Positions 18,363 to 64,000 of a DNA stretch of 64,000 nucleotides are shown here, in pieces. The stretch is taken from UHGV virus genome UHGV-1579991; one strand, written 5' to 3'. Below the pieces are notes generated by a model. It had not been told where the DNA came from. It worked only from the letters and a program-made list of their open reading frames with translations, and made no database searches. Within the stretch, counting starts at the first letter, position 1. Every line of letters starts with the position of its first letter. This DNA is from a virus. The position numbers and the translations under genes were made by a program.

Positions 18363-21300
18363 TCAAAAGCCTCGATTCATCAGTTCATCAGCAAGTCGTT
18401 CAAGTTCAGTAGCAGCTTTTTGTCGCTTGGCTTCTCTTTCTGCTTCAACATCTGCTTTGCTTACTGGCGATTCCAAGTCTTTTGCAGGTGCATCTTCAAT
18501 AACAGTCAAATTGTTGTCATCAAACTTGTTGTCAATGTCAACTCGTTTGAATGATATGATGCCTGATGACACCTGAGCTTCTACTTGTTGTTTGTCAAAT
18601 ACAAGACTACTAATCGTTGATTGCAGTTTTGTAGATGCCAGCAATCGTTCTGTGTTATCTGCAAAAATGTCATCAGTAAACAATACATGCAGCATTTGAG
18701 CAATCGAATCACGACTTCTGCTGTAGCCACTGTCAAATGCAGGCAACTGCTTAATTGCATAGATGTCGCCATCATGTACAGTAATTGCATTGAACATGCG
18801 TCTTGCAATTGATGCCACCGAATCAAGTACATCTGGTGATTGCGGCGTGTAGCCTCGTGAATCAAAGTATATGAGTGCAGAGTTCTTAACAATTTGATCG
18901 ACTACTTCTGATGCAATTGAGACTGCATCTTTGCTGTTATTGAAGACATCATTTAGCATATATGACACAATCTTGATGTTCGACTCATGCATTGTGCCAC
19001 TTGAGCCAGCATCAAATATTGACACTGCGTCTTTGATTGATTTGAGTCTTGCAAGTCGATACATGTCTTTGTTATCAATGACATACATATCGATAGTCTT
19101 CATAATTGTGTCGAACAAGTAATGATGCGATAGTGTTCGCAATGCATGTCGCCAATCATCAAATACTCGTCTGTCTTCTACAAGATATGCAAGCTTGCCA
19201 TTTTTCTTGACAAGTTCAAATCTGTCTGATTCTTGAATTTGCTCTGCCGGCAAATTCATGATGACTTCGAATGTAGCCTGATTGACAAATGATGCAAACA
19301 TTTTGCCAATCTTGCTGTTCTTTTCTTGACGGTACTCTGCTCGAGCTTCTTTTGCAGCATTGAGAACTTGAGCAATCATCATGTCATCTGCAACAACATC
19401 TTGCACGACTTTGCATTCATAGCCATACGATGACAATGTGTTCTGAATGATGACAAGCTGAGTAGCCCATTGTCGCCATTTCTGCTCAAACATATTGAGC
19501 TTATACGCAGTCAAGTGAATCTTGATTTCACCTGTGTACGGGTCACGATAAAAGTACGGTGCATTGAATGCCCATTCAAAGAAATCAAAGAGACTTCTTG
19601 AGTCATTGCGCTTTGTCTGCATTTGCAAAATGTCCCAGAATGTCAACTTTTCAACATTTGTTAATGTCAAGTCAAGCTCATCATATGCAGTGATGTTTCG
19701 TGGGTCACCATTCGCTTTTGTCATACTGAAATACACATATGACTGAATGGATATTTTGCGAAGTCGTGAGTTGAACTGCTCAATTTCTTGACCAGTGAAT
19801 GCCTCGTCATAAATGACATCGAATTCGTAGCTGTCATTGATATCAATGCCAACTGACAAGTAATTTGTGCAGAATAGCAGTTCAATATCACCGATTGTGC
19901 CAGATTCATTGATTGATTGAACAAAGTCATGCATTGCATTGTCACGCTTGTAGTACTTGACTTTTGGATTTCTGCCAAGCATCATTCGAACTGCACCAAC
20001 AATTGCATGAGTAAATGCATCGCCTTTGTTTGTTGGGAACAGAATTCGTTTGCCTGCTTTAATTGCTGTTGAGATATGTGATGCAAGTTTTGTAATCTTG
20101 TCGCCGTCATGTTTGCAGCAGACAAATCTGACACCTTTGTTGTAATTAAGTGGCTTATCGCAGAATACGACAGTATCAAAATGACAGAACATGTGTTCAG
20201 CTACAGGTGTGCCTGTCATCAAAATGACTTTTGTCTGTAACTTTGTTAAGTTGTCAATCACATTTGCAGGTACAACATCACGATATGCAGACATTGTCAA
20301 CAAGTGCGACTCGTCGACGACGACGTAGTCATATAAAATTGACACTTCCTCTGGGTCAGCTAATGTAAATTTATCGAATGTCAAAGCTACATTGACATGC
20401 TTAGACAATTCAAGACCACGCTGACCAAATGAGCAATACATGCCAAGGTCTGACATCTCAATCTTTGATTGCAAGATTGATGTGTATGGTTCAATCAGCA
20501 TGACTCGTTTTCCATCACGAGTAAGCTGTTTGATGAATTCTGTCTTGCCTGAACCTGGTCGTGCAATCAAATAGTTGATGCCAGTTACAAATGCTTCTTC
20601 AAGTTCATGCTTGTATGTCGACAAATACTCATTTTCTGCAAGTTTGAAGACATGCGTATGTCGAAGTTCAAAGTCTTTTTGCTGTGCAACTTTCGACATA
20701 ATGTATTGACTGATTGCGTCTTCTGTATTGTGTTCAGCAATCAGTTCATTGACAGTTACAGACGACTTGTTAGCAAACTTGAATTTGAAGCCATGTTTTT
20801 CACGAAGTTCTTTGACAGATGACCATACACATGGACAAGTGCCTGCTGCATTACGTTCAACTGCAGACCTGAATGAGTTTGCCCAGCTGTTATGCTCTGC
20901 ATTGAACTTTGGATTGCCCGAACACATTTGCAAGAACATTTGCAACACATGTTGATATTGTGCAGAAGTCGTTGATTGCAAATCATATAAAAATGCTAAA
21001 GTATATGCAAGTCTGTATCTACCAGTGTTATCGTAGTTTTGTGGAGTGATTGTGAGCATTGTGCCCTCTTCAATCATTGTGATGTCGTCACGTTGAGTAA
21101 AGACTTGCTCGCCGTCAGTCATTGCAGTCATATGAGACTTCGGTGCATAATCAAAACGACCACGAAGTCTATCAAACATTGTCTTCAGTTTGTCGATGCA
21201 GAATTTTGCATCAACTGAAGCATAAATGCTAACATCAAACTCTGGTTGCTCAATGAATTGCGCGTTTTGATTGATGATGACATCTTTATCTCGTGCAACA

Positions 21301-21962
21301 AATAGTGGCTGACTAATTTTGCAAACAGACGCATCAACTACTCGAGATTCAGACATTTGACCTGACTTTTCAAGTCGTCTTGACAATGTATTGTTGACAG
21401 GATGCACTTCTCGAGCCATGTCATGATTGCCCTCTGATTCAAGCTGGTCACTCAGCAACACAAGGCATTTCCAAATGACATACAGTTTTGCCTCATATGC
21501 ATCAAGATATACTTTCTTTGCTGCAGAAGCATTTTCAGATGACACAAATACAGCATCTTCAGTTTGAATTGACAGAGGCTTTGAGATTGTATAGACGTGC
21601 AAGCCTGAACCAGAAGTCGACTTAAGCACAGCAACACACCACGGATATTTGCAAAGCATTGCAGCCAAACGTGGTTTAATGACTTCTACAAGTTCTTTTG
21701 AGTGAAAGTCCAAATCGACTGGCTGTAAGCCTGACCAAGTCAAGTAGTCATGAACTTGTTGTTTTGGTCGAGCAAACATTGTCGATTGCGACACAAAGGG
21801 ACGATGCGCTTTATCTACTGTGTCAAGTGACTCATCATTTGCAACTTTCATGATGAGGTCATACAATGAAATTTGTTGCTTATTGACAGTGTCTTCTGTT
21901 TTACGAACACTGTCGCCCATCATGAACTTTATGCCACTGAGCAAATCTTTGACGTTTGACAT
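18363..21962 (-). CDS. PrimPol-like (archaeo-eukaryotic primase) domain fused to DExH P-loop helicase; putative replicative primase-helicase
   Basis: Start at MSNVKDLL (ATG 21962-21960); AEP-like motifs VDLDFH and SGSGLHVY; Walker A LIARPGSGKTEF; Walker B VVVDESHLL; about 1199 aa. Confidence 0.5.
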   Translation of the reverse strand: MSNVKDLLSGIKFMMGDSVRKTEDTVNKQQISLYDLIMKVANDESLDTVDKAHRPFVSQSTMFARPKQQVHDYLTWSGLQPVDLDFHSKELVEVIKPRLAAMLCKYPWCVAVLKSTSGSGLHVYTISKPLSIQTEDAVFVSSENASAAKKVYLDAYEAKLYVIWKCLVLLSDQLESEGNHDMAREVHPVNNTLSRRLEKSGQMSESRVVDASVCKISQPLFVARDKDVIINQNAQFIEQPEFDVSIYASVDAKFCIDKLKTMFDRLRGRFDYAPKSHMTAMTDGEQVFTQRDDITMIEEGTMLTITPQNYDNTGRYRLAYTLAFLYDLQSTTSAQYQHVLQMFLQMCSGNPKFNAEHNSWANSFRSAVERNAAGTCPCVWSSVKELREKHGFKFKFANKSSVTVNELIAEHNTEDAISQYIMSKVAQQKDFELRHTHVFKLAENEYLSTYKHELEEAFVTGINYLIARPGSGKTEFIKQLTRDGKRVMLIEPYTSILQSKIEMSDLGMYCSFGQRGLELSKHVNVALTFDKFTLADPEEVSILYDYVVVDESHLLTMSAYRDVVPANVIDNLTKLQTKVILMTGTPVAEHMFCHFDTVVFCDKPLNYNKGVRFVCCKHDGDKITKLASHISTAIKAGKRILFPTNKGDAFTHAIVGAVRMMLGRNPKVKYYKRDNAMHDFVQSINESGTIGDIELLFCTNYLSVGIDINDSYEFDVIYDEAFTGQEIEQFNSRLRKISIQSYVYFSMTKANGDPRNITAYDELDLTLTNVEKLTFWDILQMQTKRNDSRSLFDFFEWAFNAPYFYRDPYTGEIKIHLTAYKLNMFEQKWRQWATQLVIIQNTLSSYGYECKVVQDVVADDMMIAQVLNAAKEARAEYRQEKNSKIGKMFASFVNQATFEVIMNLPAEQIQESDRFELVKKNGKLAYLVEDRRVFDDWRHALRTLSHHYLFDTIMKTIDMYVIDNKDMYRLARLKSIKDAVSIFDAGSSGTMHESNIKIVSYMLNDVFNNSKDAVSIASEVVDQIVKNSALIYFDSRGYTPQSPDVLDSVASIARRMFNAITVHDGDIYAIKQLPAFDSGYSRSRDSIAQMLHVLFTDDIFADNTERLLASTKLQSTISSLVFDKQQVEAQVSSGIISFKRVDIDNKFDDNNLTVIEDAPAKDLESPVSKADVEAEREAKRQKAATELERLADELMNRGF

Positions 21963-21974
21963 ATTTTGTTGATG

Positions 21975-22030
21975 CTTTTGTTTGGTCAAAATTATATTGA
22001 ATATGATACAACACTTGTGACATTTTTGCT
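21975..22030 (-). promoter_or_regulatory. Promoter-like motif variant upstream of primase-helicase
   Basis: Minus-strand GCAAAAATGTCACAAGTGTTGTATCATATTCAATATAAT. Confidence 0.4.
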
Positions 22031-22671
22031 TAGAATGCGACACCGACATGTGCGCCAATCATAGCAGCTTTTGAGTCAACTTGCTTCATGCAGCCAGCAT
22101 CAATACCGACACGCCATTGTAAACTACCTTTGCCAAATTGACGAGTGTATGACAGCCAATACATGTCAATTGATTGCTTGTCAAATGTGCCAAATGCATA
22201 ATGAAAGTCTACATTATTTCGTGGCGCATCATGGTCAATGACTTTAATTGTCGTAGTTTGCACTTCACGAATGACTGTGTCTGCTTTGAACATCAAAACG
22301 TCCCAATCACGTTGCTTAATTGCGTTTTGTGTGACATAGTCTTTTATTGCTATTTGCAGTTTGTCTGACTTCAATGTGTCTGCGTACTCATATTGTGCAA
22401 AGTAGTCATTAACATAATGCATAAGCTTTGTTGTGTCAATGTCAACTACAAGAGTCGTGTCACAATACACTGGCACTGGTATTGTCTTGCCAGGTATATG
22501 AACTGTGTCGTGTTTAATGAATGTGTCAACTTTGACAATTGGCTCTGCATTTATAGCATCTTGATATGTTTGCCAGTCTTTTGGGCTGACAAAATGCCAA
22601 TCTTTGAAAATCATGACAGCAGTCAATACAATGACTGCTGTCATGACTATGATTTTGAGTGTCTTCAACAT
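22030..22671 (-). CDS. Signal-peptide protein with C-terminal aromatic beta-strand; possible outer-membrane beta-barrel (Lom/OmpX/Ail-like)
   Basis: N-term MLKTLKIIVMTAVIVLTAVMIF; C-term ...WRVGIDAG...AMIGAHVGVAF ending in Phe. Confidence 0.4.
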   Translation of the reverse strand: MLKTLKIIVMTAVIVLTAVMIFKDWHFVSPKDWQTYQDAINAEPIVKVDTFIKHDTVHIPGKTIPVPVYCDTTLVVDIDTTKLMHYVNDYFAQYEYADTLKSDKLQIAIKDYVTQNAIKQRDWDVLMFKADTVIREVQTTTIKVIDHDAPRNNVDFHYAFGTFDKQSIDMYWLSYTRQFGKGSLQWRVGIDAGCMKQVDSKAAMIGAHVGVAF

Positions 22672-37858: not shown

Positions 37859-38551
37859 GTGCGGTTTACACTCGTAGATGATATGAGCATACCTTGTGCA
37901 TATATGCCAAACATATATGTGTTTGCTGATGGCAATGAGTATGCAATATCTCCAATAGGTTCACAATCACTTGATTATGACGGCTCATGTATTGTACGTA
38001 TTACCAAGTCAGACTGGATTGAAATGTTTGGCGCTGGTGTTACACAAGGCAGACTTAAATTTGGCTATGGCACAAATGAGCTTGAATTTTGTGAATTGAT
38101 AAGCGCTGCAACTGCTGAAGTCAAATTCGTTATTGGTTATGAACAAAGCCAGTCTGTCACTGCAACATTTAGTGATTTGCTGCATAATCCACTTGTCGCA
38201 ACAAACAACAATTCTGCACAAGCAACAATTACATATACATTTAGTCATGCGACATTTAGAACAGCAGCATTTAAGATTATCGGTAATGTGACATTATTAC
38301 CAGGCGGTGATGTAAGTAACACAGCTACAATTCTTGCGCCTAATTATAGTACAACAATTAAGTACACTACGTCATCAACGCCAAAACTATTTGAGCATTC
38401 AATGACATTTGAGCGTAACAATGAAATGCTTGAGTATGTTGGCACTGAAGTAGACAGACATGCGTATTGTCAAATGAGACGTAGAACTACGGGCTTAACT
38501 GTATATTGTCATGTGTATATTGATGATAGCATGCTTAATATGATGAATTGA
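37859..38551 (+). CDS. Hypothetical beta-rich protein on the plus strand; GTG start at 37859 or ATG at 37883
   Basis: Only plus-strand gene in a long minus-strand array; preceded by a G7 tract (37826-37832) and followed by a strong hairpin terminator. Confidence 0.45.
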   Translation: MRFTLVDDMSIPCAYMPNIYVFADGNEYAISPIGSQSLDYDGSCIVRITKSDWIEMFGAGVTQGRLKFGYGTNELEFCELISAATAEVKFVIGYEQSQSVTATFSDLLHNPLVATNNNSAQATITYTFSHATFRTAAFKIIGNVTLLPGGDVSNTATILAPNYSTTIKYTTSSTPKLFEHSMTFERNNEMLEYVGTEVDRHAYCQMRRRTTGLTVYCHVYIDDSMLNMMN

Positions 38552-38629: not shown

Positions 38630-41600
38630 TTAGAACAGAGCAATGATGTTGTCGACAAACATAAAGCATGCATGCAGCAATTCAGCTGTCGGCGTCATCT
38701 CATATGCTTTGCCATCATACATGAATCGCACAGTGACAATTGGTGATACTTCGTCTTTGAATGCAAGCACTGGAATGTCTACGCCTGCAGTCAATTGCAC
38801 TTCAACGTCCTTGTCAGCTGCTGCATCTTTAGCAATCACTGCGATATCTCGACAACGACCAGCAGCTACTGCATACCGAACATTTGTCAATGCTGCAGAC
38901 ATATCAACAAGAGCTTGCATAATTTGCTGTTGAGTAAATTGCTCGACTGACTTCTTTGCAGCCTTGACTGCTTCGATATCTTGCGTATTTGCAAGAATCA
39001 ATGCTACCACTGCAGGGTCAGAAGTAGTCCACCAACGGCCATCAATTGCAAGCCACAGTCGATTGCCATTGACGTCAATTGCATATGCATATTGAGTGTT
39101 TGGTGCCAATGTGACTTTTCGAGTGTTCTTTAAGAACTCTGCTGCATCAGGAGCTGCAACAATGTTCTTGACAAATGACGGCAGCATTTCAGCTTCAAAT
39201 GTTTGTGTAGCTTCAAAGACACCGCCACGTGCATCGTCATCAATTCTGCCTGCAAAGCGTTTGCAGATTTGAATGATTGTAGCCATGCCTACTGTTGGAA
39301 CGACTTGACGTTTCATTGCAGGCATTTGCAGAGGCATTGTATCTTGTGCAATGTACAATGATGCAACATCAACTGTGTCAAGTACTCGTACAATGTCAGC
39401 AGCGTCAACAATTACAAACCAGTCACCATCATGACAAACAATCAGTTGCTTGCTATCATTTGCGAATGTTAACAGCACTGCAACGTCATTTTTGATTGAT
39501 ATTGCAGGAATCCATGCTTGTTGCAGAGGTAAGTCAAGATTTGGTGTGCCGCATGGATAAAGCGCAGATGGCTGCATAATTGAGCGGCAATCAAAACCTA
39601 TTGAACTTACAAGCTGCAGAACTTCGCCACGAATGCAAGCATTACTTTGATTCTGTGTCATATCATATGCAAGCCAACTGCAAATTGCTTTGATTGATGA
39701 CACTGGAAATGCTATGCCAATTGTGCTGTATGCAATCTTGCCGTCTGCTGACAATGACTCATCAACTGCAATGCCAGCATCATTGAACAATGACATATCA
39801 ATTGAACAATGGAATTCGCCACCAGGCATTGGACCTGCAGCAATACCATAGCCAGGACCAAGTGACAGCCATTCTTTCATTGCATCTGAATTGTATGACG
39901 AGAACTTGTACAACACATATGACTTATGCGGGTCACTAACTGACTTGCGAATCTCCATCTTGGCGCCTGCTTTCTTTGCAATTGCTTTGATGTTGTCAGC
40001 ATGCTTCTTTGCCTCAGACTTGTCAAATTTGCCTTCATCAAGTTGAGCAATCTTGCCAAGCGCATAAGCAGTCCATGCAATTGACAATTGATTCAGTGCA
40101 CCAACTTCTGACCACGACTTTTCTGCAAACCATGAGCCAAGACCAGATTTGTCAAGAGTTGCTTTGCGTTCAGCTTTTGTTGCAGCATCCCACCACTTGC
40201 CTGTTGCAGGCAACACAATGTCTTTGATTTGCTCCTTGCGAAGCTCATTGACGCCAATTTTGCCCTCATGAATATGCGCATTTGCATGATATGCTCTAAG
40301 AGCAGCCAATGCAGCATCATATGAGTCATAGTCTTGCGGCCAGAATTCCCCATTCTTGCCAATGATGCCCCATACGCCCTTTGACTTTTCTTGGATGACA
40401 GAGTCTTTGTCACCAGCAGCTTCATTGACAAATGCAGTGTTAAGATATGCAATGACATGCTGAAGCTCTTTGTCGTCTGCAGACTCATTGACGTTCTTAG
40501 CGTAATCACCAAGAATTGATTCAACTTTGCCACGTAAATTGCTTGGCATATCATCAAGGTCAAGATTGCCATACTTCGTGACTTCTGGTTGAGACAATCC
40601 AAGCAATTTCAACACCTTATCACGGTACTTGTTTGCGAGCTTCTTCCAAATCCAGCGGAATGTTACAGCGCCAATCAAGAATTTGATGAGGCCCTCATCA
40701 AGTACATGTTGTTCACGCAAATATGCTGTAATGCATGAACGTTGACCATCAGTTAAGTCAACCCACATTTTATCAAGCAGTATTGAATCTGGGTTGCTTG
40801 CAATGCCAGCGCCACTGCGGTTGTACACATTCATTCTGTCAATTGCTGGTGTTGCGTCATTGTCCCACCAAGCTTGCGCATATGAACATCCAGCAGGATT
40901 TGAGATTGCCTCATCAATGTACATGACATTGAAAATTTCGCAAAGACGCTTGCGACATTCAGGTGACATAACTTGCCATTGTGTTGCAATTTTGTCTTCT
41001 GACCACTGCAACAGCATGTCTGCAAATTCTTTACCTGCACATTGCTCAACTGCGCCATGTTTCGAACGCCAATAATTGTCAGGCTCAATCTGCGCAATTG
41101 CATGAACAAATGAAGTCAGATTGTATGACGCAGATTCGCAAATGCAATGCTGTTCAATGTAGCTACGAACAGCAAGTGCAGTGTCTTCCGGCAAGTTGCT
41201 ATATGGTGACTCATAGATGTTTGCTTGCTGATTGAGCATATGTGGAGCGACTTCTGCAATGATTTGTTTGCGAACATTCAATGGCCATGCATTCCACGAA
41301 GATTCCACAGATTCATCAAGATGCATACCAATTGCATCCATAACTGCATCAGCATCTTTGCCCGACAGTTCGTCAAACAATTTGTCTACTACTGCAGCGT
41401 CATATCGCAAATTTGGCTGAGCTTTTGCAAGAGCATCCATCATTGCTTTGCGTTCTTGTTTTGACGCATTGTTCCATGTGCCAGCATACAATTCTGCTGT
41501 CGCGCTTTCACAAACAATATCTGCAGTAGCATATGCTTGCTTCATAATGTCCATGAAGATTGACTTCATTTTTGGATGCATCACATGATACTTTTCATTG

Positions 41601-41836
41601 TAAATGTCAAGTGTGCCATAGACATCTTTCAATGGTCTAATGCTTTCTGATGAGCCGAATGATGGCTTCAAAATTGAATTGCATACACGTTCAACGGTGC
41701 CACGCATAAACTTGACATCACTTCGCTTGTCACTGATAGACATAAATGCATCAATGACAGACTTGATGGTGTCATCTGCGGCTTCATTAACAAAGCCTAC
41801 TGGTCGACCGCCAAACTTGTTTGTTTGTGTTGTCAT
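38630..41836 (-). CDS. Large hypothetical protein, 1068 aa
   Basis: Uninterrupted ORF; no polymerase, helicase or nuclease motif recognised. Confidence 0.55.
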   Translation of the reverse strand: MTTQTNKFGGRPVGFVNEAADDTIKSVIDAFMSISDKRSDVKFMRGTVERVCNSILKPSFGSSESIRPLKDVYGTLDIYNEKYHVMHPKMKSIFMDIMKQAYATADIVCESATAELYAGTWNNASKQERKAMMDALAKAQPNLRYDAAVVDKLFDELSGKDADAVMDAIGMHLDESVESSWNAWPLNVRKQIIAEVAPHMLNQQANIYESPYSNLPEDTALAVRSYIEQHCICESASYNLTSFVHAIAQIEPDNYWRSKHGAVEQCAGKEFADMLLQWSEDKIATQWQVMSPECRKRLCEIFNVMYIDEAISNPAGCSYAQAWWDNDATPAIDRMNVYNRSGAGIASNPDSILLDKMWVDLTDGQRSCITAYLREQHVLDEGLIKFLIGAVTFRWIWKKLANKYRDKVLKLLGLSQPEVTKYGNLDLDDMPSNLRGKVESILGDYAKNVNESADDKELQHVIAYLNTAFVNEAAGDKDSVIQEKSKGVWGIIGKNGEFWPQDYDSYDAALAALRAYHANAHIHEGKIGVNELRKEQIKDIVLPATGKWWDAATKAERKATLDKSGLGSWFAEKSWSEVGALNQLSIAWTAYALGKIAQLDEGKFDKSEAKKHADNIKAIAKKAGAKMEIRKSVSDPHKSYVLYKFSSYNSDAMKEWLSLGPGYGIAAGPMPGGEFHCSIDMSLFNDAGIAVDESLSADGKIAYSTIGIAFPVSSIKAICSWLAYDMTQNQSNACIRGEVLQLVSSIGFDCRSIMQPSALYPCGTPNLDLPLQQAWIPAISIKNDVAVLLTFANDSKQLIVCHDGDWFVIVDAADIVRVLDTVDVASLYIAQDTMPLQMPAMKRQVVPTVGMATIIQICKRFAGRIDDDARGGVFEATQTFEAEMLPSFVKNIVAAPDAAEFLKNTRKVTLAPNTQYAYAIDVNGNRLWLAIDGRWWTTSDPAVVALILANTQDIEAVKAAKKSVEQFTQQQIMQALVDMSAALTNVRYAVAAGRCRDIAVIAKDAAADKDVEVQLTAGVDIPVLAFKDEVSPIVTVRFMYDGKAYEMTPTAELLHACFMFVDNIIALF

Positions 41837-41949: not shown

Positions 41950-44900
41950 TCAATTACATGCTGAATGTCCGCAGTTGGTGCATCGAACACAGCCGTCAAA
42001 CTTGACCATGTCACCACCGCATTCAGGACACTTTGCATACATCTTTGAGCCATCTTGAATGTGTAGTTTCAATGCGCGACCAATTGCTTTGCAGAATGTG
42101 CCAACAGATGCAAAGCTTTTTGCAGTTTGGTCGACAATTTCACCAAGGTCGATGCCATTGCGAAGCATCGTTGAGTACAGTCGAGTAATTGTTTGCTGCT
42201 CATCTGAACCAAGACGTTCTGAGATATTGTCATAGTGTTGCAAGAATGACAAATTATCACCAAGCTTGTAGTGCTTCTTATCAGTCTTTGTGATTGTCGT
42301 TTGTTCAATGCCTTGCAACTTGTCAAATTCGTCTTTGTCAAGTTCAAATGCAAAGATTTCATAGGGTCGACCATCATCACAACCTACAAGAATACACCAC
42401 TTACGCTTATACACTGATACACAATACACTGCAGCAGGCAATACAGGTTTTCGTTTTGAGCGATGACCAGACTGCAAGACATGCGACTTATCCTTAGACT
42501 GCTTATCATCTTTTACGAGAACACCTGCACGTGAGCCATCTCGATAAATTGTGCAACCCTTGCAGCCAGATTTCCATGCAGTCAGATAAATTTCACGAAC
42601 AAGCTCTTTTGTTGCAGAGTTTGGAATATTGACTGTTACAGAAATTGATGAGTCAATGTACTTTTGCAACGCGCCTTGCAGTTTAACCTTGCCAATCCAG
42701 TCAACATCTTCAGTAGTTGCCTTATAGTATGGTGATTGAACAAGCAATTCATCAATGACTGCTTGCGAAGCATTTGACAACCAAGCTTTGATACGAGACA
42801 TTTCTGCTTCTGACCATTCAATGCCAGTATCTTTGACAAGGGTGAATTTGTCATCACCAAGCTGCACTCGTTTGCAAATCCACTGCATCAATGGGTAGTG
42901 AACTACAGCGTATTCAATGAACTTGTCACCAGTAGTCTCATCAATGAAGTTGATGTCTGCTTCATTATCAACTGCAGTAGGCTTTCGACGACGTTTGTGC
43001 AGTGGCATAAAAACAGGTTCAATGCCAGAAGTTGTCTGAGTCATCAAAGCTGTGGTGCCAGTTGGCGCAATTGTTGTTGTGTTGATGTTTCGACGACCAA
43101 ATTGTTGATAAGTTGTGATGTGCTCATCATCAATCAGTTCAGATAACATACGCTGAATGAACTTTGACTGCACATCTGTGTCATAGTCGAATATTGCAAA
43201 TGAGCCACGAATCTCTGCCAAGTCAATTGACGCTTCATAAGTCGCCTTTACAAGCCATTGTTGCATAGTGACTGCGAAGTCAATTGACTCTTGTGAACCA
43301 TAGCGCAAGCCAAGCATTGCCATTGCATCGCCAAGTGCAAGAAAGCCCATGCCATATCGACGAGTATTTGTCAATTTGTCATAGACTTTATGCCACAAGT
43401 CAAGCTCAGTTTTCTTAATGTCAAATGATTCTTTGTCTGATTCAACCTTTGCAATGATTCGTTGAACTGCTTCAATTTCAAGCTGCACAAGGTCATCCAT
43501 GATGACTGCACAGTCATATGTATCTTTGTAGAATGCTTCAAAGTCAAATGATGCATCAGCAGTCCAAGGATTAAGCACATATGCAGTCAAATTGCGATGT
43601 GATAAAATGCAGCTTGCATATGCTGCAAGAGGCTGTTCACCGCACTGCCTGTTGTTTACAAATACTTGCATATGTCTGTCATTTGTATCATTGACAGCGT
43701 CAAATGACCCTACAAAAAAGTTGTGATAATCATCTACAGTGCCATTATACACATCTTCTACACCATCAAGTTCAACAGTGTGTACCCTATGATTGTAGTA
43801 ATCTGCAAACTGCTTAAACTTTCTGTATGACGCATGAATAGCAGCGTCAACATTGTTAGATTTGCATTCATTTGCAAATTCTTCATAATTTGGTCGTTTG
43901 CCAAGTTTTTGCTTTGCTGCAGTATATACAAGCACTTGTTCTTTAGACCATTTTGCTTGCTGAGCTGCGTGGCCGCATTCGGCAGAACAATATGCAACTT
44001 CTCTATAAAACCAGTGCGCCCAAAATTCAGAGCCGCAATGTTCGCAAATACGTTTAACATACACTTGTTTGTCAACAAATTTAGTGTCATAGCCCATATT
44101 GCGAACTTTAATTGCTGTTGCTATGCATCTGCTATCAATGCCAACTAAATCAGGATATTTAACATTAGCGCGCGTTGCACAATGACTTAAAAATGCATCA
44201 ATAGAGCCAAATGTTTCTACTAATTTATTGTACCTGTAGCCAGACCATGCAACAGTATTATTGCCTGGCGCATAGCGCATATAGTATTCTAATTCTTTGC
44301 GACTAAGGCCTCTTCCAACTTTTGCAGTGCATTGCGTAACATAGTCTACAATTGATTGCACAGTTGTATCAATATCATATCTGCCATTACGTTCACCAGA
44401 AGTAGATGCACTCATTTTAGCAGAATACTGTGCAAAACGTTCTGCATTTGCTTTAATTTTGTATATTGGATTGTTAGTGCCTCTACGTTCAAGTGCATGT
44501 AATGCATCATGCTCTTTTTTGCTTAGTACTTGTAAGTTATTTGGGTCATTGTTTAATGAATTGCCATCGATATGATGCACTACTGTGTGTGTAGCATCAA
44601 ACTGTTCAGCATGACAGTATTCTGCTATTAAACGATGCTCAAACTTATATACACCATTATTCAACACTGCATAATATGGTGCAGATTTGCTATTTGTTTG
44701 ATAGCTAAGCACTTCATCAAATGAACATTGTTGTCTTGCAATAATTGCTAAGCTATCACCATGCTGTAATTGTCGTGCTTCTTTGTATGTGCCATCTGTT
44801 AACTTAAACTTGTGATTACCTGTGCAACGAATAACATCACCAGAATCAAGTGTAACTTTGTATATTTGCACATTTGAGCCTGTTTTGCGTGGATGCCGCA

Positions 44901-45936
44901 TTTTGCGTACAACTACATTATTGTTGTCATCATAGCAATACACATTAACATCATCGCCAATATCTGCAAGTTCACGTATTGTCATTGTTTGTCTGCCATC
45001 AGCAAGCATAACTTTAGTGCTGCCAACAATGCATGGATTTGTTGAGCGCTCTTCATACATTTTACCGTATGCTTTCGAGTTCGACTCTTCCATAATGCGG
45101 TCCCAAAAGAACACGCCGGGTTCTGCAGATGCCCATACATTGTCAACAATTTTGTCAAATAATGCTTTTGCATCTGATGTCTTATGCAGCTCTTGGCCAT
45201 CAGAGCCACGCCAAATATGTTCAAACTGCTGTTCTGCAAGCACTGCACGCATAAATGCATCAGTAAGCTTGATGGAAATGTTTGCACCTGTGATTTTTGT
45301 CAAGTCTTTTTTTGCGTCAATGAACTTATCTGCATCAGGATGCTCAATTGACAATGACAACATCAATGCGCCACGCCTGCCATTTTGTGCAACTTCTTTT
45401 GTCGATGTTGAAAAGCGTTCCATAAATGACACGACACCAGACGTCGTAATAGCACTGTTATGTACTTCTACGCCTTCTGGGCGAATATGCGACAAATCAT
45501 GGCCAACACCACCACGACGTTTCATCAACTGAACTTGCTCTTCATCTGTTTTGAAGATGCCGCCATATGAATCTGCATCATTGCCTATTACATAGCAATT
45601 TGACATTGATGTGTAACCGCCAAGACCGATACCAGCCATTGGAGAACCACCAAGTACAAATCGCTTAAATGGCTCAAGCAAATATGCAAGTCGCTCTTTT
45701 GACAATACACGTTTGCCTGTCTGTTCTTCAAATTGTGATTCTATACGGTCAAATTCATTGACCCAGCGCTCATGCATATCAGACAATGAGTGTTCATACA
45801 AATTGTCTTTGTCATGATGCAAGTATTTTGACATGCATATGTCAGCAGCCATTGAGTCGCCCGTAAATTCATGCGTCAGTGTAGTGTGCACTTCAGCATA
45901 TTCAGGCGACCCAATTTGAATGGGACGTTTTGTCAT
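41950..45936 (-). CDS. nrdJ: Ribonucleotide reductase, class II (adenosylcobalamin-dependent, NrdJ-like), interrupted in-frame by an intein
   Basis: Start at MTKRP (ATG 45936-45934); extein motifs STNP...CGEQPL (reconstitutes NPCGE), TIYRDGSR, C-terminal CPECGG...CTNCG zinc ribbon; total ORF 1328 aa is far longer than a typical RNR. Confidence 0.75.
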   Translation of the reverse strand: MTKRPIQIGSPEYAEVHTTLTHEFTGDSMAADICMSKYLHHDKDNLYEHSLSDMHERWVNEFDRIESQFEEQTGKRVLSKERLAYLLEPFKRFVLGGSPMAGIGLGGYTSMSNCYVIGNDADSYGGIFKTDEEQVQLMKRRGGVGHDLSHIRPEGVEVHNSAITTSGVVSFMERFSTSTKEVAQNGRRGALMLSLSIEHPDADKFIDAKKDLTKITGANISIKLTDAFMRAVLAEQQFEHIWRGSDGQELHKTSDAKALFDKIVDNVWASAEPGVFFWDRIMEESNSKAYGKMYEERSTNPCIVGSTKVMLADGRQTMTIRELADIGDDVNVYCYDDNNNVVVRKMRHPRKTGSNVQIYKVTLDSGDVIRCTGNHKFKLTDGTYKEARQLQHGDSLAIIARQQCSFDEVLSYQTNSKSAPYYAVLNNGVYKFEHRLIAEYCHAEQFDATHTVVHHIDGNSLNNDPNNLQVLSKKEHDALHALERRGTNNPIYKIKANAERFAQYSAKMSASTSGERNGRYDIDTTVQSIVDYVTQCTAKVGRGLSRKELEYYMRYAPGNNTVAWSGYRYNKLVETFGSIDAFLSHCATRANVKYPDLVGIDSRCIATAIKVRNMGYDTKFVDKQVYVKRICEHCGSEFWAHWFYREVAYCSAECGHAAQQAKWSKEQVLVYTAAKQKLGKRPNYEEFANECKSNNVDAAIHASYRKFKQFADYYNHRVHTVELDGVEDVYNGTVDDYHNFFVGSFDAVNDTNDRHMQVFVNNRQCGEQPLAAYASCILSHRNLTAYVLNPWTADASFDFEAFYKDTYDCAVIMDDLVQLEIEAVQRIIAKVESDKESFDIKKTELDLWHKVYDKLTNTRRYGMGFLALGDAMAMLGLRYGSQESIDFAVTMQQWLVKATYEASIDLAEIRGSFAIFDYDTDVQSKFIQRMLSELIDDEHITTYQQFGRRNINTTTIAPTGTTALMTQTTSGIEPVFMPLHKRRRKPTAVDNEADINFIDETTGDKFIEYAVVHYPLMQWICKRVQLGDDKFTLVKDTGIEWSEAEMSRIKAWLSNASQAVIDELLVQSPYYKATTEDVDWIGKVKLQGALQKYIDSSISVTVNIPNSATKELVREIYLTAWKSGCKGCTIYRDGSRAGVLVKDDKQSKDKSHVLQSGHRSKRKPVLPAAVYCVSVYKRKWCILVGCDDGRPYEIFAFELDKDEFDKLQGIEQTTITKTDKKHYKLGDNLSFLQHYDNISERLGSDEQQTITRLYSTMLRNGIDLGEIVDQTAKSFASVGTFCKAIGRALKLHIQDGSKMYAKCPECGGDMVKFDGCVRCTNCGHSACN
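43645..45033 (-). mobile_element. Intein (about 463 aa) with Hint blocks and an HNH endonuclease domain, apparently ending in Gln
   Basis: Begins at Cys after STNP (CIVGSTKVMLADGRQTMTIRELADIGDD, block A); block B GNHKFKLTDG; HNH motif VVHHIDGNSLNNDPNNLQVLSKKEHDALH; zinc-finger-like CEHCGSEF...CSAECGH; block F VYNGTVDDYHNFFVG; ends ...VFVNNRQ immediately before CGEQ. Confidence 0.65.
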
Positions 45937-45973
45937 TGTAACAGTGCATTTAAGTGTTTTAACAGTTTTATGT

Positions 45974-46007
45974 ATAAATTGTACAACAATGGGCAAAATT
46001 TTGCATC
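45974..46007 (-). promoter_or_regulatory. Promoter-like conserved motif containing TTGTACAA upstream of RNR
   Basis: Minus-strand GATGCAAAATTTTGCCCATTGTTGTACAATTTATAC. Confidence 0.5.
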
Positions 46008-57064: not shown

Positions 57065-57637
57065 TTAAAATTTGGATAGACTCGTAGTATCAAGCGATGC
57101 AATTGAATCAATGCGCAAAGAATCTGCTATAGGTGCGCAATCATCAATTGGGTGACTTGCAGGCTTAACTTTGAGCATATACATTCTGCAATTGCCAATA
57201 TCTATAAGGGAACCAGAACGTGTCATATAATCACAGCCCAAAATGCCAACGACTTCATGACCAAGTGCTTTGCTAAGCTGAACTAAAATAGGTGAAATAT
57301 CATCAATAAACATATCCAACTGTACAGAGCCATTTGCGATAGTAATATCTGCGTCTATTGCATGAGATACTTGAAGAGCCCCTGTAACATATGATAATCG
57401 CTTAACTGAACGCTCTTTGCCAACCATGTCATGAGTAGCAACAAATGTGCTATCAATCAATGACAATGACGCGCCAGTATCAAGCAAAAGCCATGCATCG
57501 ACACCATTGACATTTGCATGCACAAATGGCAGGCTCTTCAAAACAATTGGTGACTGTGATTGCTGCAATGCTTCATTGCACATTGTCAGCGTCATAATCG
57601 CAAGTAGCGATATGAGAAACAATTTGAATGCTTTCAT
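57065..57637 (-). CDS. Retropepsin-like aspartic protease with N-terminal signal peptide
   Basis: MKAFKLFLISLLAIMTLTMC hydrophobic leader; active-site LLLDTGAS; downstream VVGILGCDYM. Confidence 0.55.
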   Translation of the reverse strand: MKAFKLFLISLLAIMTLTMCNEALQQSQSPIVLKSLPFVHANVNGVDAWLLLDTGASLSLIDSTFVATHDMVGKERSVKRLSYVTGALQVSHAIDADITIANGSVQLDMFIDDISPILVQLSKALGHEVVGILGCDYMTRSGSLIDIGNCRMYMLKVKPASHPIDDCAPIADSLRIDSIASLDTTSLSKF

Positions 57638-57651: not shown

Positions 57652-59601
57652 TTAGTCATTTGCTTTAGTTGCTTGCATCAGTTCAGCAAAGCTTACAGTG
57701 TAAGCGTCTTCGCCAACGGTCACGTATGCAGCATTGACATTTGAGTCATTGCCTGTGTATGTAACCAAGGTGCCTGCAGGAATTTCCACACCGTCAATGG
57801 TTCGCATCGAATTGACAAGCTTGTATGTCTTGTTATCTTCGAAGTTCTCATTGACATATGCAGCAGCAATCATTGTTGAACGCTTACGAGATTCATTGAT
57901 GAAACTTGCGCCAACAAGTTCTGACAACTTCTTCTTTGTTACAGCAGAGCATTTGTCATATGCAATGTCAATTGCGAGGTCTACATCACCAAGTTCCTTT
58001 GCAATGAGTTCATCAATCTGAGACAGCTTCTTGTCATCTTTGACAGCGACAAAATTCATTGCAAACTTGCGAGCGTTGTCTGACAATGATTCATCAATGT
58101 TCCACTGTTTCATCAATGTCTGCTTCAGTACCTTGTCAAGTTCCGACCAGTCCTTATCTGCAAGAGTAGTTGCATCAAAGTCTTCATTGCTGAACTGCTT
58201 CAGCACTTTGACTTTGTCATCATGTGACAATGCAGCCCACTTGTTTGCAGCCTCTTCAGCAGATTCAAGCAAAGGCTTGATTGCATCTTTGAGTTCTTGC
58301 GGCCAAGTTTCAGGCGCTTTGAGCAGCATCTCAGATGAGTTGTACTCAAGCATGTCAGTCATGATTGCAAGCTTAACATTGTTAGCTTTCTCCTCGGGTG
58401 ACAGAGCTTTGAACTTTTCAGCCCAGTCTTCAGATTCAGTTACAATTGACACTGGTTTTGCAAAACCAGCAACAAAGACAAGCTTATACATGATATTCGT
58501 CATGAATGAGCAAACTGCATCAATGTCTGACTGTGTTGCTGCAGATTGAGCATCACGAATGTTGAGCAATGCCTGACGAAGAGACATAATGCCTACAACA
58601 GGGTCAGACCATGTCAACACAACAGAGCTGTCAATTGTGATACCCTTGTCGAATCGCATATTTTCTGCAATACGGTCAGCAAGTTCAGGCAGTTCAGTGT
58701 AGTACTGCTCAAGTGCTGCATGTGTAGCAGGAATCGAAACTTTTGCAGCATCAAATGGGTTGTTGATGTGCATAACATGTGCAGTTTGAATTGACTGCAT
58801 CAGCATCGACACTACTGCAGATTCTATTGCAACATCATCTGCAGCAGCTTCATCAAGATTTGCAAGTTTTAGCAATGTCTTTTTGTCTGCATCTGACAAT
58901 CGCAGCCAAATGTATTCCCATTGACTGTTTGCATCATAGCCACGGTCAGTAGCAAACTTGGTGAGTTCTGCAGATTTCTTTGCTGCGTCATCGTCATCAA
59001 GCCAATCCAAGAATGCTTTCAGTTTGTCGTCAAATGCTTCATTAACAAATGACGCCATTGCATTTTGCAGCAAATATTGATGGTCTCGTACTGGCGACTC
59101 AACAATTTCAAAGCCTTCAAGAGACTTTGGCGAGTCAGTTGCTGAACCAGCTTCAAGACACTTCTTTGATGCATTGTCAATGACAAACCACATCTTTTGT
59201 GCTTTGAGTGCAATGTAAGTCTTGTCTTTTGATTGCTGAACAGTCATGTTGTCAAGAGCCAATGCACTGATTGGCAAATTCTTGACTGCTGACTTGTCAA
59301 GTGCTTCATTGACTGCTACATTGTCATCACTCATTAACTGAGTATTTGCAGCAAATGTTGCAGAATCAATGTTAAGCTCTTTGCCATCAGGCATAGAGAA
59401 CTTAACTGCATCTGCAACATCAAGCACTTGTACCATGGTACCTGCTTCGACTTTGTCATCACCAACAGCGAACTCAGTTACAACCTGATATGCCTTGTTA
59501 GCTTCAACAGTTTCAACAGACTCCATAATGAACTTTGCTGTACTGCAAGAGATTTTGTGCTTTTTCATGTTCATGTATGAATTTGAGTGTTTGTTGTTCA
59601 T
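57652..59601 (-). CDS. Hypothetical acidic helical protein, about 649 aa (start uncertain); possible scaffold or virion protein
   Basis: Long ORF located between capsid-gene region and the protease gene. Confidence 0.45.
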   Translation of the reverse strand: MNNKHSNSYMNMKKHKISCSTAKFIMESVETVEANKAYQVVTEFAVGDDKVEAGTMVQVLDVADAVKFSMPDGKELNIDSATFAANTQLMSDDNVAVNEALDKSAVKNLPISALALDNMTVQQSKDKTYIALKAQKMWFVIDNASKKCLEAGSATDSPKSLEGFEIVESPVRDHQYLLQNAMASFVNEAFDDKLKAFLDWLDDDDAAKKSAELTKFATDRGYDANSQWEYIWLRLSDADKKTLLKLANLDEAAADDVAIESAVVSMLMQSIQTAHVMHINNPFDAAKVSIPATHAALEQYYTELPELADRIAENMRFDKGITIDSSVVLTWSDPVVGIMSLRQALLNIRDAQSAATQSDIDAVCSFMTNIMYKLVFVAGFAKPVSIVTESEDWAEKFKALSPEEKANNVKLAIMTDMLEYNSSEMLLKAPETWPQELKDAIKPLLESAEEAANKWAALSHDDKVKVLKQFSNEDFDATTLADKDWSELDKVLKQTLMKQWNIDESLSDNARKFAMNFVAVKDDKKLSQIDELIAKELGDVDLAIDIAYDKCSAVTKKKLSELVGASFINESRKRSTMIAAAYVNENFEDNKTYKLVNSMRTIDGVEIPAGTLVTYTGNDSNVNAAYVTVGEDAYTVSFAELMQATKAND

Positions 59602-59851: not shown

Positions 59852-60874
59852 TCATTGTTGTTTATGCCAGCCATATGATGCCTGACCAGCATCATACACT
59901 TCTACAAAACCATGGTCGTACATAAAATCTTCATTACGAGTGCCCTTGCCACCATTAGTGCCAAGAATACGGTCTGCACCATGCATAAGTAGCATGTTAT
60001 TTGTGACATGTTGCTTTGTCAGCATATTGAACCAGTGTTTGCTATATGACAAACCAAGACCATCAAAGCCCAGCTTTGTGTACACACCACCGTCAAACTT
60101 GCTTAAATCACAATATGATAACACAGATTCAGGGTCATATGTCTTGATAAAGTGCTTAAAGATTCGTTCAGCACCACCAACAACTTTGGTTGCTGCACAA
60201 AGACGTAGCAATTCATATTGATAGCGCTTATTGTATCGTGGACGACCAAATGTCATAAGTTGATGAATGACATAACCACCAAGCAACTCAAGTGGATGAC
60301 CTTCAATCAACGCAAGATTGATAAAATTGCCTGAGCACTTGCCTTGCAAATGATGTTCAATCAAAAATTGATTTGCAGTATACTTGTCAATTTCAACAAC
60401 TTTAAGCTTGCGAGCATATACAATCTTTGATTTGTCTACGATTTGATGCTTGATGTGATTGATAACTTTCTTGGCGTCATCCCAATCCCACACATGAATA
60501 CAATGAAAGCCTGCAGCTTTTGCAATGTCTGTTTTCTTTGCATGAACATCACAAGGCAAATGTGCATCTTTTGCATCATGCATAAACAAGTGCTCAAATG
60601 AATGCGTACTGTTATGCGAAAATGCAGGATTGATGTTAATGACAATATTGTCATGTCGAAAATCGAAGACTTCATCACCAATGACAAAGTTGCGCTCAAA
60701 ATCTATACCGACATGTTTGAGCAACACTTGATGCCACACGTCTTTATAGGCTGATTCAAGCTTGCTTAGCTCATCACAGTTTGCAATGTTTTTGTAACGT
60801 TGAATAGCAGCATCAAAGTCAAGATTGACTTCAGCGTAGTCTGCATTTTTATCATAGTGAAATTTTGAGCTCAT
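59852..60874 (-). CDS. Homing-endonuclease-like protein with N-terminal PD-(D/E)xK-like domain related to the C-terminal domain of family A
   Basis: Start at MSSKFHYDK (ATG 60874-60872); IVININPAFSHNSTH...GFHCIHVWDWDD. Confidence 0.45.
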   Translation of the reverse strand: MSSKFHYDKNADYAEVNLDFDAAIQRYKNIANCDELSKLESAYKDVWHQVLLKHVGIDFERNFVIGDEVFDFRHDNIVININPAFSHNSTHSFEHLFMHDAKDAHLPCDVHAKKTDIAKAAGFHCIHVWDWDDAKKVINHIKHQIVDKSKIVYARKLKVVEIDKYTANQFLIEHHLQGKCSGNFINLALIEGHPLELLGGYVIHQLMTFGRPRYNKRYQYELLRLCAATKVVGGAERIFKHFIKTYDPESVLSYCDLSKFDGGVYTKLGFDGLGLSYSKHWFNMLTKQHVTNNMLLMHGADRILGTNGGKGTRNEDFMYDHGFVEVYDAGQASYGWHKQQ

Positions 60875-60890
60875 GCGTATAATTTTGTGT

Positions 60891-60935
60891 ATATAATTAT
60901 TGTACAACATGCAAATGCACATTGCATTTGATACA
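60891..60935 (-). promoter_or_regulatory. Promoter/operator element shared by homing-endonuclease genes
   Basis: Minus-strand GCAATGTGCATTTGCATGTTGTACAATAATTATATAC; near-identical element at 62041-62085. Confidence 0.5.
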
Positions 60936-62373: not shown

Positions 62374-63957
62374 TCAAATCCAGCCGTAGTCGCTGTGGAT
62401 AGCGAAGGTGAGGTAAGCCAACTCGGGATACATACCCGTCTCCGCGAGAGCGTAATCCGACTCAATCAGCAACTTAGGCGCTGCTGTACCTTCGGCTGTT
62501 AATTCCACACTTGATGCAAGGTCATATGGCATGAATACGCATCCCTGGTTGACATTCTCTACGTCAACGCCGTCAGCAGTTTTGTTCGTACGAAGAACGA
62601 GAACAGTGTTATCGTTCAGCGGCTGCTTAGGATTGCAATAGATTTTAATGCCAGCAAGGTCACCTGCATAATACAGGTTCTTGTTGTCCTGTACCAGCGT
62701 ATTGTCAAGAGCTGCAACAAAGTTCTTCTGAGCCTTAATTGCAACCAAGGCAATCGTATTGACCACGGCAGCATCACCGGCACCGAAACGCGACAGGTTG
62801 CCAATGATTGCCGAAGCAGCCAGGATACGAGTTGCGATACGAGCCTGACGGGTAATCTGGTTCTCAGCCGAGCTGTTCGATTCAGCGTTCGGAACCATAC
62901 CGAATTCAGCCGTACGGTCTACACCCATCTTGTCGACAAATGCAGGAGCCTGGAATTCTGAGAATGCCTTGGCGGTTGAACCAGCGTAGCCAATGTACAA
63001 GTTCAGGTTGTAGCCCTGAGCAGCCAACAGCTGAGCATGTGTCGTAACACCAAGTGCACGCATGCGCTTCAGACCATTGTCGTTAATTGACTGCGTGATT
63101 TCATTCTGCATTGCATTCTTGATGATTGCAACTGCATCCAAACCGCGAGCACGGAGGTCCTTAACCTGTCGACGAGTCAGAGCACCCCAAGTCTGGTACG
63201 TCTTAACTTCGATAGCCTTTGAGAAGGTGCGGAGCTCCAGCATGTTCGGGTTGCCAGCCTCAGCCTCAGAACGAGACATTGGGTTGCCGTCAATGTCATC
63301 CATTGCAGCGAAGCCGTGGATGTGTTCGTCACCAGCCGAAACCAGGTCGAACATAACCTCAGTCATGCCAGTCAGCATGTCAGTTACAGCACCTGCAGCG
63401 TCAACCGAGTAGATTTTCGATGCAGCCATTGCAACATCAGCCAACGACTTGTCAGGAGCAACTGTCATTGCGCCACCTGCGCCTACAGTGTACACGCCCT
63501 CATTGCGAACTACGAGGTAGCCTGCAACACGCGATACCTGTACAAACGTTACCTTGGCAGCAAGCTCACCGGCAGCTGAACCGCCGATGTACAGAACTTG
63601 ACCCTTCTTGAGGCCATGAACCATTGTCTGCGAAGCAACATTGTACAACTCCTTCCACTTGATGAGGAAGTAACGAGGACCCTTGGCTGCATTCAACTTG
63701 CCACCGCCATATACGTAGTCTACATAGTCCAGCTGAACCAGCGGGCTGTAAACAGGAATGGTCGGGAGCAGGTCGAACAGAATCGTGTTGGCTGCGATGT
63801 TCATGTTCAGAGCCAGAACATTGGCAGCTACATCTATTGAACCACGCTTACGCGACGGGTCATGGAACTGTGCTTGCGTACCTGGGTCAGCAGGGAAAGC
63901 GACCGGACCTACGCCATTGAGATTCTGCGAATACGTCGACTCAAACGACTCGTTCAT
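62374..63957 (-). CDS. Major capsid protein (T4 gp23-like)
   Basis: 527 aa; central region NMLELRTFSKAIEVKTYQTWGALTRRQVKDLRARGLDAVAIIKNAMQNEITQSINDNGLKRM parallels the gp23 segment around IDKQVIEAKSRQLKAAYSIELAQDLRAVHGMDADAELSGILATEIMLEINREVVDWI; markedly G/C-ending codon usage unlike the rest of the window. Confidence 0.65.
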   Translation of the reverse strand: MNESFESTYSQNLNGVGPVAFPADPGTQAQFHDPSRKRGSIDVAANVLALNMNIAANTILFDLLPTIPVYSPLVQLDYVDYVYGGGKLNAAKGPRYFLIKWKELYNVASQTMVHGLKKGQVLYIGGSAAGELAAKVTFVQVSRVAGYLVVRNEGVYTVGAGGAMTVAPDKSLADVAMAASKIYSVDAAGAVTDMLTGMTEVMFDLVSAGDEHIHGFAAMDDIDGNPMSRSEAEAGNPNMLELRTFSKAIEVKTYQTWGALTRRQVKDLRARGLDAVAIIKNAMQNEITQSINDNGLKRMRALGVTTHAQLLAAQGYNLNLYIGYAGSTAKAFSEFQAPAFVDKMGVDRTAEFGMVPNAESNSSAENQITRQARIATRILAASAIIGNLSRFGAGDAAVVNTIALVAIKAQKNFVAALDNTLVQDNKNLYYAGDLAGIKIYCNPKQPLNDNTVLVLRTNKTADGVDVENVNQGCVFMPYDLASSVELTAEGTAAPKLLIESDYALAETGMYPELAYLTFAIHSDYGWI

Positions 63958-64000
63958 ATACTGAACGTTCTGAGCGATTGATGCGAGCAGATACTTCTTA

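Follow-up and report, generated by a model that had tools for sequence, protein, structure and literature searches.

A large gene without known relatives in a phage with a T4-like head

The subject of this analysis is an open reading frame (ORF) on the minus strand at 38630..41836 of a 64,000-nucleotide stretch of the virus genome UHGV-1579991, hereafter the window. It starts with ATG and encodes a protein of 1068 amino acids (118 kDa, pI 5.2), the target. An earlier note on this DNA had described it as one of the largest genes, with terminators on both sides and no recognisable motifs. It is indeed the third largest ORF of the window, behind 41950..45996 and 18363..22058. The absence of motifs was not borne out: the protein carries 12-13 copies of a cleavage motif of the T4 head-protease type, as well as an N-terminal peptide (N[KR]FGG.P ... 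VNE|A, the bar marking the predicted cut), five tryptophan-repeat units and a module of ~50 residues common to other phages. We consider it probable that the target is a polyprotein of the prohead core or capsid interior, processed by a gp21-type protease.

DNA folding supports the terminators, showing two strong hairpins on the flanks, each with a T-run; a consensus terminator scan detected none at the ends of the ORF. The downstream hairpin is bidirectional (~38570-38614; 22 bp, perfect, ΔG -36.9 kcal/mol, z -10.0) and common to the target and the convergent gene 37859..38551. The upstream one (~41897-41930, minus strand; 15 bp, ΔG -30.1, z -5.7) is the terminator of the adjoining ribonucleotide reductase (RNR) gene. 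The target gene therefore forms its own transcription unit. Between the target and a 97%-identical ortholog on an 87.7-kb metagenomic contig, 100 codon differences are synonymous and 28 non-synonymous, and the ORF is thus a genuine coding gene under purifying selection.

The window also encodes a gp23-type major capsid protein (62374 to the window end), a large terminase, T4-type topoisomerase II subunits, NAD ligase, an exonuclease, polynucleotide kinase/phosphatase, a class II RNR that contains an intein, and several homing endonucleases. At the nucleotide level it matched no phage record. Its capsid protein shares 26-39% identity with the capsid proteins of Chryseobacterium phage MA9V, 'Sphingomonas' phage PAU, Tenacibaculum phages PTm1/pT24, a Flavobacterium phage and the Prevotella Lak megaphages, and near-identical IMG/VR contigs, such as IMGVR_UViG_3300045988_149023 and _152288, measure ~175 kb. 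By these sequence comparisons the source is thus a large (~175-kb) phage with a T4-like head, belonging to a PAU-related clade (the PAU/PTm1/MA9V/Lak capsid clade). The host genera named in the capsid-match records are mostly Bacteroidota, from which we infer a Bacteroidota host. The T4-like framing of the earlier note holds for the head (gp23-type capsid protein, gp21-type protease, topoisomerase II). The target gene itself lies between the RNR and topoisomerase II genes, and its neighbours serve replication and nucleotide metabolism.

The note had also seen no polymerase, helicase, nuclease or structural signature, and database searches agree. With the whole target, Pfam returned sub-threshold noise only and no domain above threshold, PHROGs and PDB sequences gave no match, and neither did tblastn against 50,697 phage records (INPHARED). 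A word-indexed 5.8-billion search found nothing past one 97% ortholog. Clear homology to a known structural protein was likewise absent at the level of the whole protein; the sole homology link of the target to the head is a repeat common to a protease-scaffold tail, described below.

A cleavage-type motif punctuates the target

The motif consists of a hydrophobic residue, usually Asn or Asp, Glu, and then Ser, Ala or Gly, and it occurs in the target and in all orthologs. Its instances in the target read FVNE|A, VCE|S, LDE|S, ICE|S, IDE|A, LDE|G, VNE|S, VNE|A, IHE|G, LDE|G and VDE|S. The loose form, [LIV].E[ASG], was found 13 times against 2.8 expected (0/5000 shuffles) and the strict form 11 times against 0.61 expected (0/5000 shuffles; Poisson 6e-11), while control motifs in which Asp, Gln or Lys replaced Glu, or in which the order was reversed, occurred at expectation. 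Eleven sites fall within residues 1-693, whereas the 375-residue C-terminal module contains one loose site versus 0.84 expected.

Every positional ortholog is enriched for the motif, with the first site at residue 18-27 and a conserved N-terminus, M..N[KR]FGG.P, ahead of it. In a multiple alignment the motif columns form conserved punctuation at module junctions, kept even where the adjoining modules differ. In the target, residues 1-18 (MTTQTNKFGGRPVGFVNE|A; 41783..41836, minus strand, as are all features of the target below) end in the first motif, a hydrophobic-x-Glu followed by a small residue, and are a candidate capsid-targeting propeptide. Residues 19-693 (39758..41782) make up the putative processed region, in which the motif is enriched (N-terminal half, 11 versus 2.8 expected) and the site columns are conserved. 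Here cuts are predicted after E110 (codon 41507-09), E175 (41312-14), E209 (41210-12), E234 (41135-37), E309 (40910-12), E381 (40694-96), E451 (40484-86), E472 (40421-23), E524 (40265-67), E601 (40034-36) and E693 (39758-60).

The predicted products are the 18-residue N-terminal peptide, 11 fragments of 2.4-10.4 kDa and an acidic C-terminal protein of 40.9 kDa that begins SLSADGK. Most of the small fragments would be acidic. An exception is a basic 8-kDa piece (residues 382-451, 40484..40693, pI 9.5), which is the best-conserved module among the orthologs and opens with the hydrophobic helix LIKFLIGAVTFRWIWKKL. A beta-hairpin plus helix module, KGVWGIIGKNGEFWPQDYDSYDAALAALRAYHAN (residues 473-524, 40265..40420), is bracketed by VNE|A and IHE|G and would be released as a 5.7-kDa fragment; it is the module widely shared with other phages. 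The site-poor C-terminal module (residues 694-1068, 38633..39757; 40.9 kDa, pI 4.7) is the putative mature cargo.

AlphaFold2 models were built from shallow alignments (pLDDT 52.8 for the C-terminal module and 47.8 for the full length) and were too weak for fold assignment. The full-length model contains folded islands at residues 118-169, 393-442 and 479-515 and in parts of the C-terminal module; that at 393-442 (pLDDT 65-73) falls within the basic module and that at 479-515 within the beta-hairpin module. No N-terminal island extends beyond a single predicted fragment, and 12/12 sites fall in stretches with pLDDT <50, an arrangement with a chance of ~3% by rough estimate. The C-terminal module is predicted to comprise three alpha+beta domains. 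A duplication relating the first two is weak (hhalign E 5.9e-4), and no sequence relation of the third to either was detected, so that a triplication is weakly supported. Foldseek searches against PDB (twice) and BFVD gave no match with E < 0.01.

The motif recurs in the head-maturation machinery

Among 63 ORFs of the window, enrichment was seen only in the target and in a 649-aa ORF near the capsid gene (57652..59601, minus strand; 10 loose and 5 strict sites). This ORF sits two genes downstream of the capsid gene and contains a DUF5856/Dps-like domain (phrog_858). On sequence grounds it is probably a second head-core polyprotein and a likely co-substrate. It also has W..Ls...K..ll repeats and small beta modules. 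As a standalone small ORF, DUF5856 occurs in phages of Cronobacter, Aeromonas, Serratia, Escherichia and other enterobacteria.

The gene for the gp23-type capsid protein (62374..64000, minus strand) is cut by the window end, and its visible propeptide part ends ...VQYMNE|SFES. Because of this truncation, MNES only looks like the start of the protein; it is in fact where a 47-residue propeptide ends. The full protein, read in the 99%-identical contig L009 (IMGVR_UViG_3300045988_149023, 175 kb, 97-99% identical to the window), begins 44 codons earlier: MNAKRTQIDALLKKWGPVLDE|SFDSKLSPAKKYLLASIAQNVQYMNE|SFESTY. The motif thus stands twice in the propeptide (..VLDE|SFDS.. and ..YMNE|SFES..), directly ahead of the gp23 fold.

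Upstream of the head genes the same contig encodes a 1284-aa protein (L009:1-3939). It starts with a gp21-type prohead protease domain (residues ~1-170; Pfam Peptidase_S77, PF03420; E 3.9e-6, 26.9 bits, gathering threshold 27) and shares 34% identity (E 2e-26) with the protein of PAU that is annotated as capsid maturation protease. A gp21-family protease of the same phage was thus found by way of a near-identical contig. The domain is fused to a tail of ~1100 residues with 23 loose and 15 strict sites versus 6.3 and 1.1 expected, some of them in a cluster directly after the protease domain.

A replicate genome, L010, whose capsid protein is 75% identical, was examined with the motif fixed beforehand. 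The propeptide sites of the capsid protein are conserved (IDE|S, INE|G), and only two of 21 ORFs, both polyprotein ORFs of the head module, are enriched: a 1381-aa ORF adjoining the capsid gene (25 versus 7.4) and a 689-aa ORF downstream (11 versus 3.9). The homolog of the 649-aa ORF is among the enriched ORFs. In cultured phage PAU, the scaffold gp152 and the two ORFs gp142 and gp154 with the annotation 'internal capsid protein', together with gp149, gp150 and gp153, start MKT[LI]xxL[YF]E|[A/S/D], and the capsid protein has KKWGAKLNE|SFES, which aligns with the motif described here. The motif of the target is therefore that of the capsid maturation site, namely VLDE|S and YMNE|S in this phage, IDE|S and INE|G in the replicate and LNE|S in PAU. 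The cleavage sites of gp21 in T4 are L/I-x-E motifs, with the cut following Glu (PMC9026906, PMC5694885), and by analogy the pattern in PAU and the target matches the logic of the T4 capsid-targeting sequence (CTS) and its processing by gp21. In PAU two different genes encode the protease (246 aa) and the scaffold (277 aa), unlike the fusion in L009.

A Trp-repeat is shared with the protease-scaffold tail

Five helical units of the form W-x2-h-x4-[RK]-x2-[ILM] lie in the N-terminal half of the target, as delimited with a hidden Markov model (HMM; domain scores 23-28 bits). They occupy residues 118-143 (41408..41485), 179-203 (41228-41302), 284-309 (40910-40987), 355-379 (40700-40774) and 547-571 (40124-40198). 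The HMM was built from units of the target family alone and searched against 375 ORFs from the window and the L009 head region. The protease-scaffold tail was the only significant match (E 3e-6; next best 0.35), scoring 21.3 against a shuffle maximum of 5.3 (0/500 shuffles). The target and the scaffold-like part of the head protease therefore share a repeat module. By count, at least eight such repeats are present in the tail of the L009 fusion.

Orthologs occupy one genomic slot and shuffle their modules

An exhaustive HMMER scan of 1.84 billion representatives recovered 15 related proteins and revealed the target to be modular. The C-terminal module (residues ~687-1064) is also present in P0002 (837 aa), P0003 (406 aa) and P0009 (434 aa), and in each of these homologs it is preceded by [IV][ND]E[SA]LS.DG. 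It is absent from P0004 and P0007. A profile search with its alignment returned nothing new. The module at residues 358-478 recurs in P0004-P0008, and the ~50-residue module at 476-526 in the otherwise unrelated phage proteins P0010-P0015 (38-55% identity). P0002 and P0004 lie in the same genomic slot, running from RNR through the gene to a gyrB-like topoisomerase subunit (related contigs up to 179 kb); on this evidence they are positional orthologs of the target with shuffled module content.

Among these proteins, P0010/P0013 (L012) and P0012 (L013) belong to other phage lineages and pair the module, here KPNGKWGII...AYHAN, with a different recurrent punctuation motif. In P0010 this is K-x-F-S-[D/E/N], a motif defined post hoc, found 9 times against 0.4 expected, one of its positions being directly after the shared module. 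Arrays of the P0010 type may be polyproteins cut by proteases of different specificity. When the ~50-residue module and P0010 were compared by tblastn with cultured phages, only the DUF5856 part was matched.

A probable prohead-core polyprotein

Taken together, these results favour the guess of the earlier note that the protein is virion-internal, in the form of a head-core polyprotein cut by the gp21-type protease. In the mechanism that we propose, the target would be built into the assembling prohead core via its conserved 18-residue N-terminal peptide, its Trp-repeat modules, or both. The gp21-family serine protease would then cut after Glu at ~12 sites of the form hydrophobic-x-Glu|Ser/Ala/Gly. 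Residues 1-693 would be diced into peptides of 2-10 kDa, mostly acidic with one basic 8-kDa piece, which would either exit the head or remain as internal peptides. The cuts would also free the uncut, acidic 375-residue C-terminal protein, a 41-kDa cargo probably retained in the head and possibly ejected with the DNA. Cleavage, head location and fragment fate are thus inferred. A role of the C-terminal protein as cargo rather than disposable scaffold is favoured because its module is depleted of sites and conserved as a unit.

Several observations weigh against this reading. The motif was first defined post hoc on the target, a concern that the replicate tests in other proteins and genomes can only lessen, and the bare literature motif of T4, [LI].E, is not significantly enriched in the target (12 versus 7.8 expected). 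The protease gene lies beyond the right edge of the window and was read only in relatives 97-99% identical, with a Peptidase_S77 score 0.1 bit under the gathering threshold. No homolog of the target was found, in the searches run, in any cultured phage with proteomics. None of the other ORFs examined shares the N-terminal peptide of the target family. The gene is located amid replication and nucleotide-metabolism genes, outside the head module. Finally, promoter and late-gene motifs compared with those of the head genes agreed no better than expected by chance, and the gene was assigned to no temporal class.

The alternative that survives best, though we think it unlikely, is that the target is an accessory scaffold only, a paralog of prohead-core or scaffold proteins that is wholly degraded or expelled as the head matures, C-terminal module included, with nothing delivered to the host. 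The Trp-repeats common to the target and the scaffold-like protease tail fit such a role, as do the predicted fragments, mostly small and acidic like the debris of T4 gp22, gp67 and gp68 (PMC5694885). Module content also varies freely among orthologs, and P0004 and P0007 contain no C-terminal module. However, this module is depleted of sites relative to the N-terminal half (1 versus 11) and is conserved as one piece in three lineages, in one case as an ORF that stands nearly alone. Depletion and conservation as a unit are the pattern expected of a product meant to survive proteolysis.

A cytoplasmic, non-virion role, as a multi-module hub associated with replication or host takeover in which x-E-S/A is an uncleaved helix-cap or linker feature, appears rather improbable. 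It would account for a separate transcription unit between the RNR and topoisomerase II genes, with conserved synteny, and for the lack of detected homology to known virion proteins. Yet the motif stands at the borders of modules that are not homologous to one another, namely helical repeats, the beta-hairpin module and the alpha+beta C-terminal module, and it recurs in the capsid propeptide and directly past the protease domain, where an explanation by structural repeats does not apply. Nor is the position of the gene decisive, since on the T4 map ip and alt also lie outside the head cluster.

It is very improbable that the C-terminal module is a divergent sliding clamp (beta/PCNA/gp45-like) serving the neighbouring replication genes. 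At ~375 residues in three alpha+beta domains it is near the size of a bacterial beta clamp, and clamps recur in all three Foldseek lists. These matches are, however, non-significant (best E 0.046, prob <=0.10, TM <=0.14) and rest on models with pLDDT 48-53; no clamp was found in a PDB-sequence profile search or in Pfam, even at E = 10, and fusion to a 693-residue protease-punctuated region would be left unexplained. We rejected this identity, with a small residual doubt from the low model quality. Least probable of all is processing by a phage retropepsin-like aspartyl protease (57065..57637) instead of a gp21-type enzyme: this ORF lies directly downstream of the gene for the 649-aa polyprotein and passes the Pfam Asp_protease_2 threshold, with DTGA and GILGxD motifs, but its lipoprotein signal peptide and lipobox (LTM|C), hence predicted export, led to its rejection as an implausible processing enzyme, and Glu at P1 with a small P1' residue is the known specificity of the gp21 family (PMC9026906, PMC5694885) and not of retropepsins.

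Comparison with known head proteins

The closest functional parallel to the proposed head-core polyprotein may lie in IPI, IPII and IPIII, the internal proteins of T4, and Alt, which carry a short N-terminal targeting propeptide that gp21 removes after Glu in a hydrophobic-x-Glu motif, and whose head-stored mature portion is ejected together with the DNA (PMC9026906). The target resembles them in its candidate N-terminal propeptide ending in hydrophobic-x-Glu, by analogy with the T4 CTS, and in its fast-evolving gene located outside the head cluster. With sizes of 8-76 kDa the T4 proteins are small, and they receive a single N-terminal cut (in Alt a C-terminal one as well), whereas the target has ~12 predicted cuts across the 693 residues upstream of its putative cargo. 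Its N-terminal peptide is unrelated to MKTYQEFIAE and is instead analogous to the MKTLxxLYE|A peptides of PAU. In T4 and PAU several proteins share one CTS, while the peptide of the target family is unique among the ORFs examined. Replacing the P1 Glu by Asp blocks processing of the T4 CTS. Pfam, PHROG and phage tblastn searches detected no homology of the target to the T4 internal proteins, Alt, gp22, gp67 or gp68, and the claim is therefore that it works like these proteins, not that it is a homolog of them.

T4 gp22, gp67 and gp68 offer a second parallel, being core proteins that numerous cuts reduce to small peptides. Fusions of protease and scaffold (lambda gpC/Nu3, P2 gpO, herpesvirus UL26) resemble the phage's own protease with its scaffold-like tail, whose repeat the target has in common. 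The target differs from both groups in being without a protease domain, in being encoded far from the head genes and in ending in a large site-free globular module.

In phiKZ and SPN3US, inner-body and ejection proteins have propeptides of >100 residues with several S/A-x-E motifs before the mature ejected fragment, and paralogs share conserved N-termini (PMC5694885, PMC10052503). The target is similar in its predicted long multi-site propeptide ahead of a putative mature fragment; in its case, however, the propeptide would be ~700 residues long and, in place of a single pro-region, consist of folded mini-modules that can be exchanged. It matched neither Pfam phiKZ_IP, even at E <= 1, nor any SPN3US protein. 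Polyvalent proteins of phages and conjugative elements, as described by Iyer et al. 2017 in the citation of that work in PMC7824862, are large, modular, rapidly shuffled and thought to be co-delivered with DNA. The target is likewise large, multi-domain and shuffled, but its modules appear to be separated by head-protease-type sites, and Pfam showed neither the diagnostic enzymatic domains nor an LPD domain in it.

Multi-site processing of head-core proteins and CTS-directed packaging are already known from T4. In the literature searched we found no description of the present format, in which ~700 residues of folded, exchangeable mini-modules are punctuated by a dozen protease sites and followed by a cargo domain, the gene lying outside the head cluster and the phage clade being uncharacterised. 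If the prohead-core reading is correct, a simple rule (hydrophobic-x-Glu|small, enriched relative to shuffles) picks out the substrates of the head protease in a clade of large Bacteroidota phages that stems from gut and environmental metagenomes and is almost uncharacterised. Three large ORFs without known relatives (the target, the 649-aa protein and the protease tail) would become a testable capsid-core proteome, and candidates for injected factors would be the 41-kDa protein and a number of conserved peptides. The T4 capsid-targeting paradigm, already used to package foreign proteins, would extend to a far more elaborate multi-module format.

A bolder version, which we hold only tentatively, is that the target is a capsid-packaged 'cassette array' of exchangeable, independently folding mini-proteins plus a larger cargo, with head-protease sites between them. 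From a single gene, a dozen peptides and effectors would then reach the host as a cocktail alongside the DNA, a polyprotein strategy in tailed phages comparable to that of RNA viruses. Other lineages would have equivalent arrays around the ~50-residue module with their own punctuation, such as K-x-F-S-[DEN] in P0010.

Other features of the window and its relatives

The ORF at 57065-57637 (minus strand, 190 aa) has the lipobox ..LAIMTLTM|C followed by a retropepsin-like domain (PF13650, 29 bits, above threshold; LLLDTGAS, GILGCDYM); an exported lipoprotein of this kind seems unusual for a phage. Also near the capsid gene, an HNH homing-endonuclease ORF (59852..60922) lies downstream in the window, and in L009 an ORF with a DUF7487 domain (Pfam; 8491..9780) lies just upstream. 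Between the sheath-like and capsid genes of L009, a 249-aa ORF (6995-7744, plus strand) encodes a (Pro-Glu)n repeat of ~40 dipeptides and hydrophobic N-terminal segments that are possibly membrane-spanning.

The second giant ORF without a PHROG match (18363-22058, minus strand, 1231 aa) shows mild enrichment of the cleavage-type motif (3 strict sites versus 0.63 expected, p ~0.02). The class II (B12-dependent) RNR gene at 41950-45996 (minus strand) is interrupted by the intein, which was judged by eye to carry an endonuclease of the HNH type; gene calling in the related contigs L006 and L007 splits the RNR into two ORFs, one of 1125 or 937 aa and one of 430 aa. A near-identical long upstream element (TGCAAAaTyTGCA..GTAGTATtATATAT..AACCTCTaCtACAATG) precedes three minus-strand genes, at 52640-52760, 37650-37730 and 46845-46930, probably representing one promoter or leader class. 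The RNR, topoisomerase II and target genes have a distinct upstream type, TTTTGC..TTGTACAATATA.

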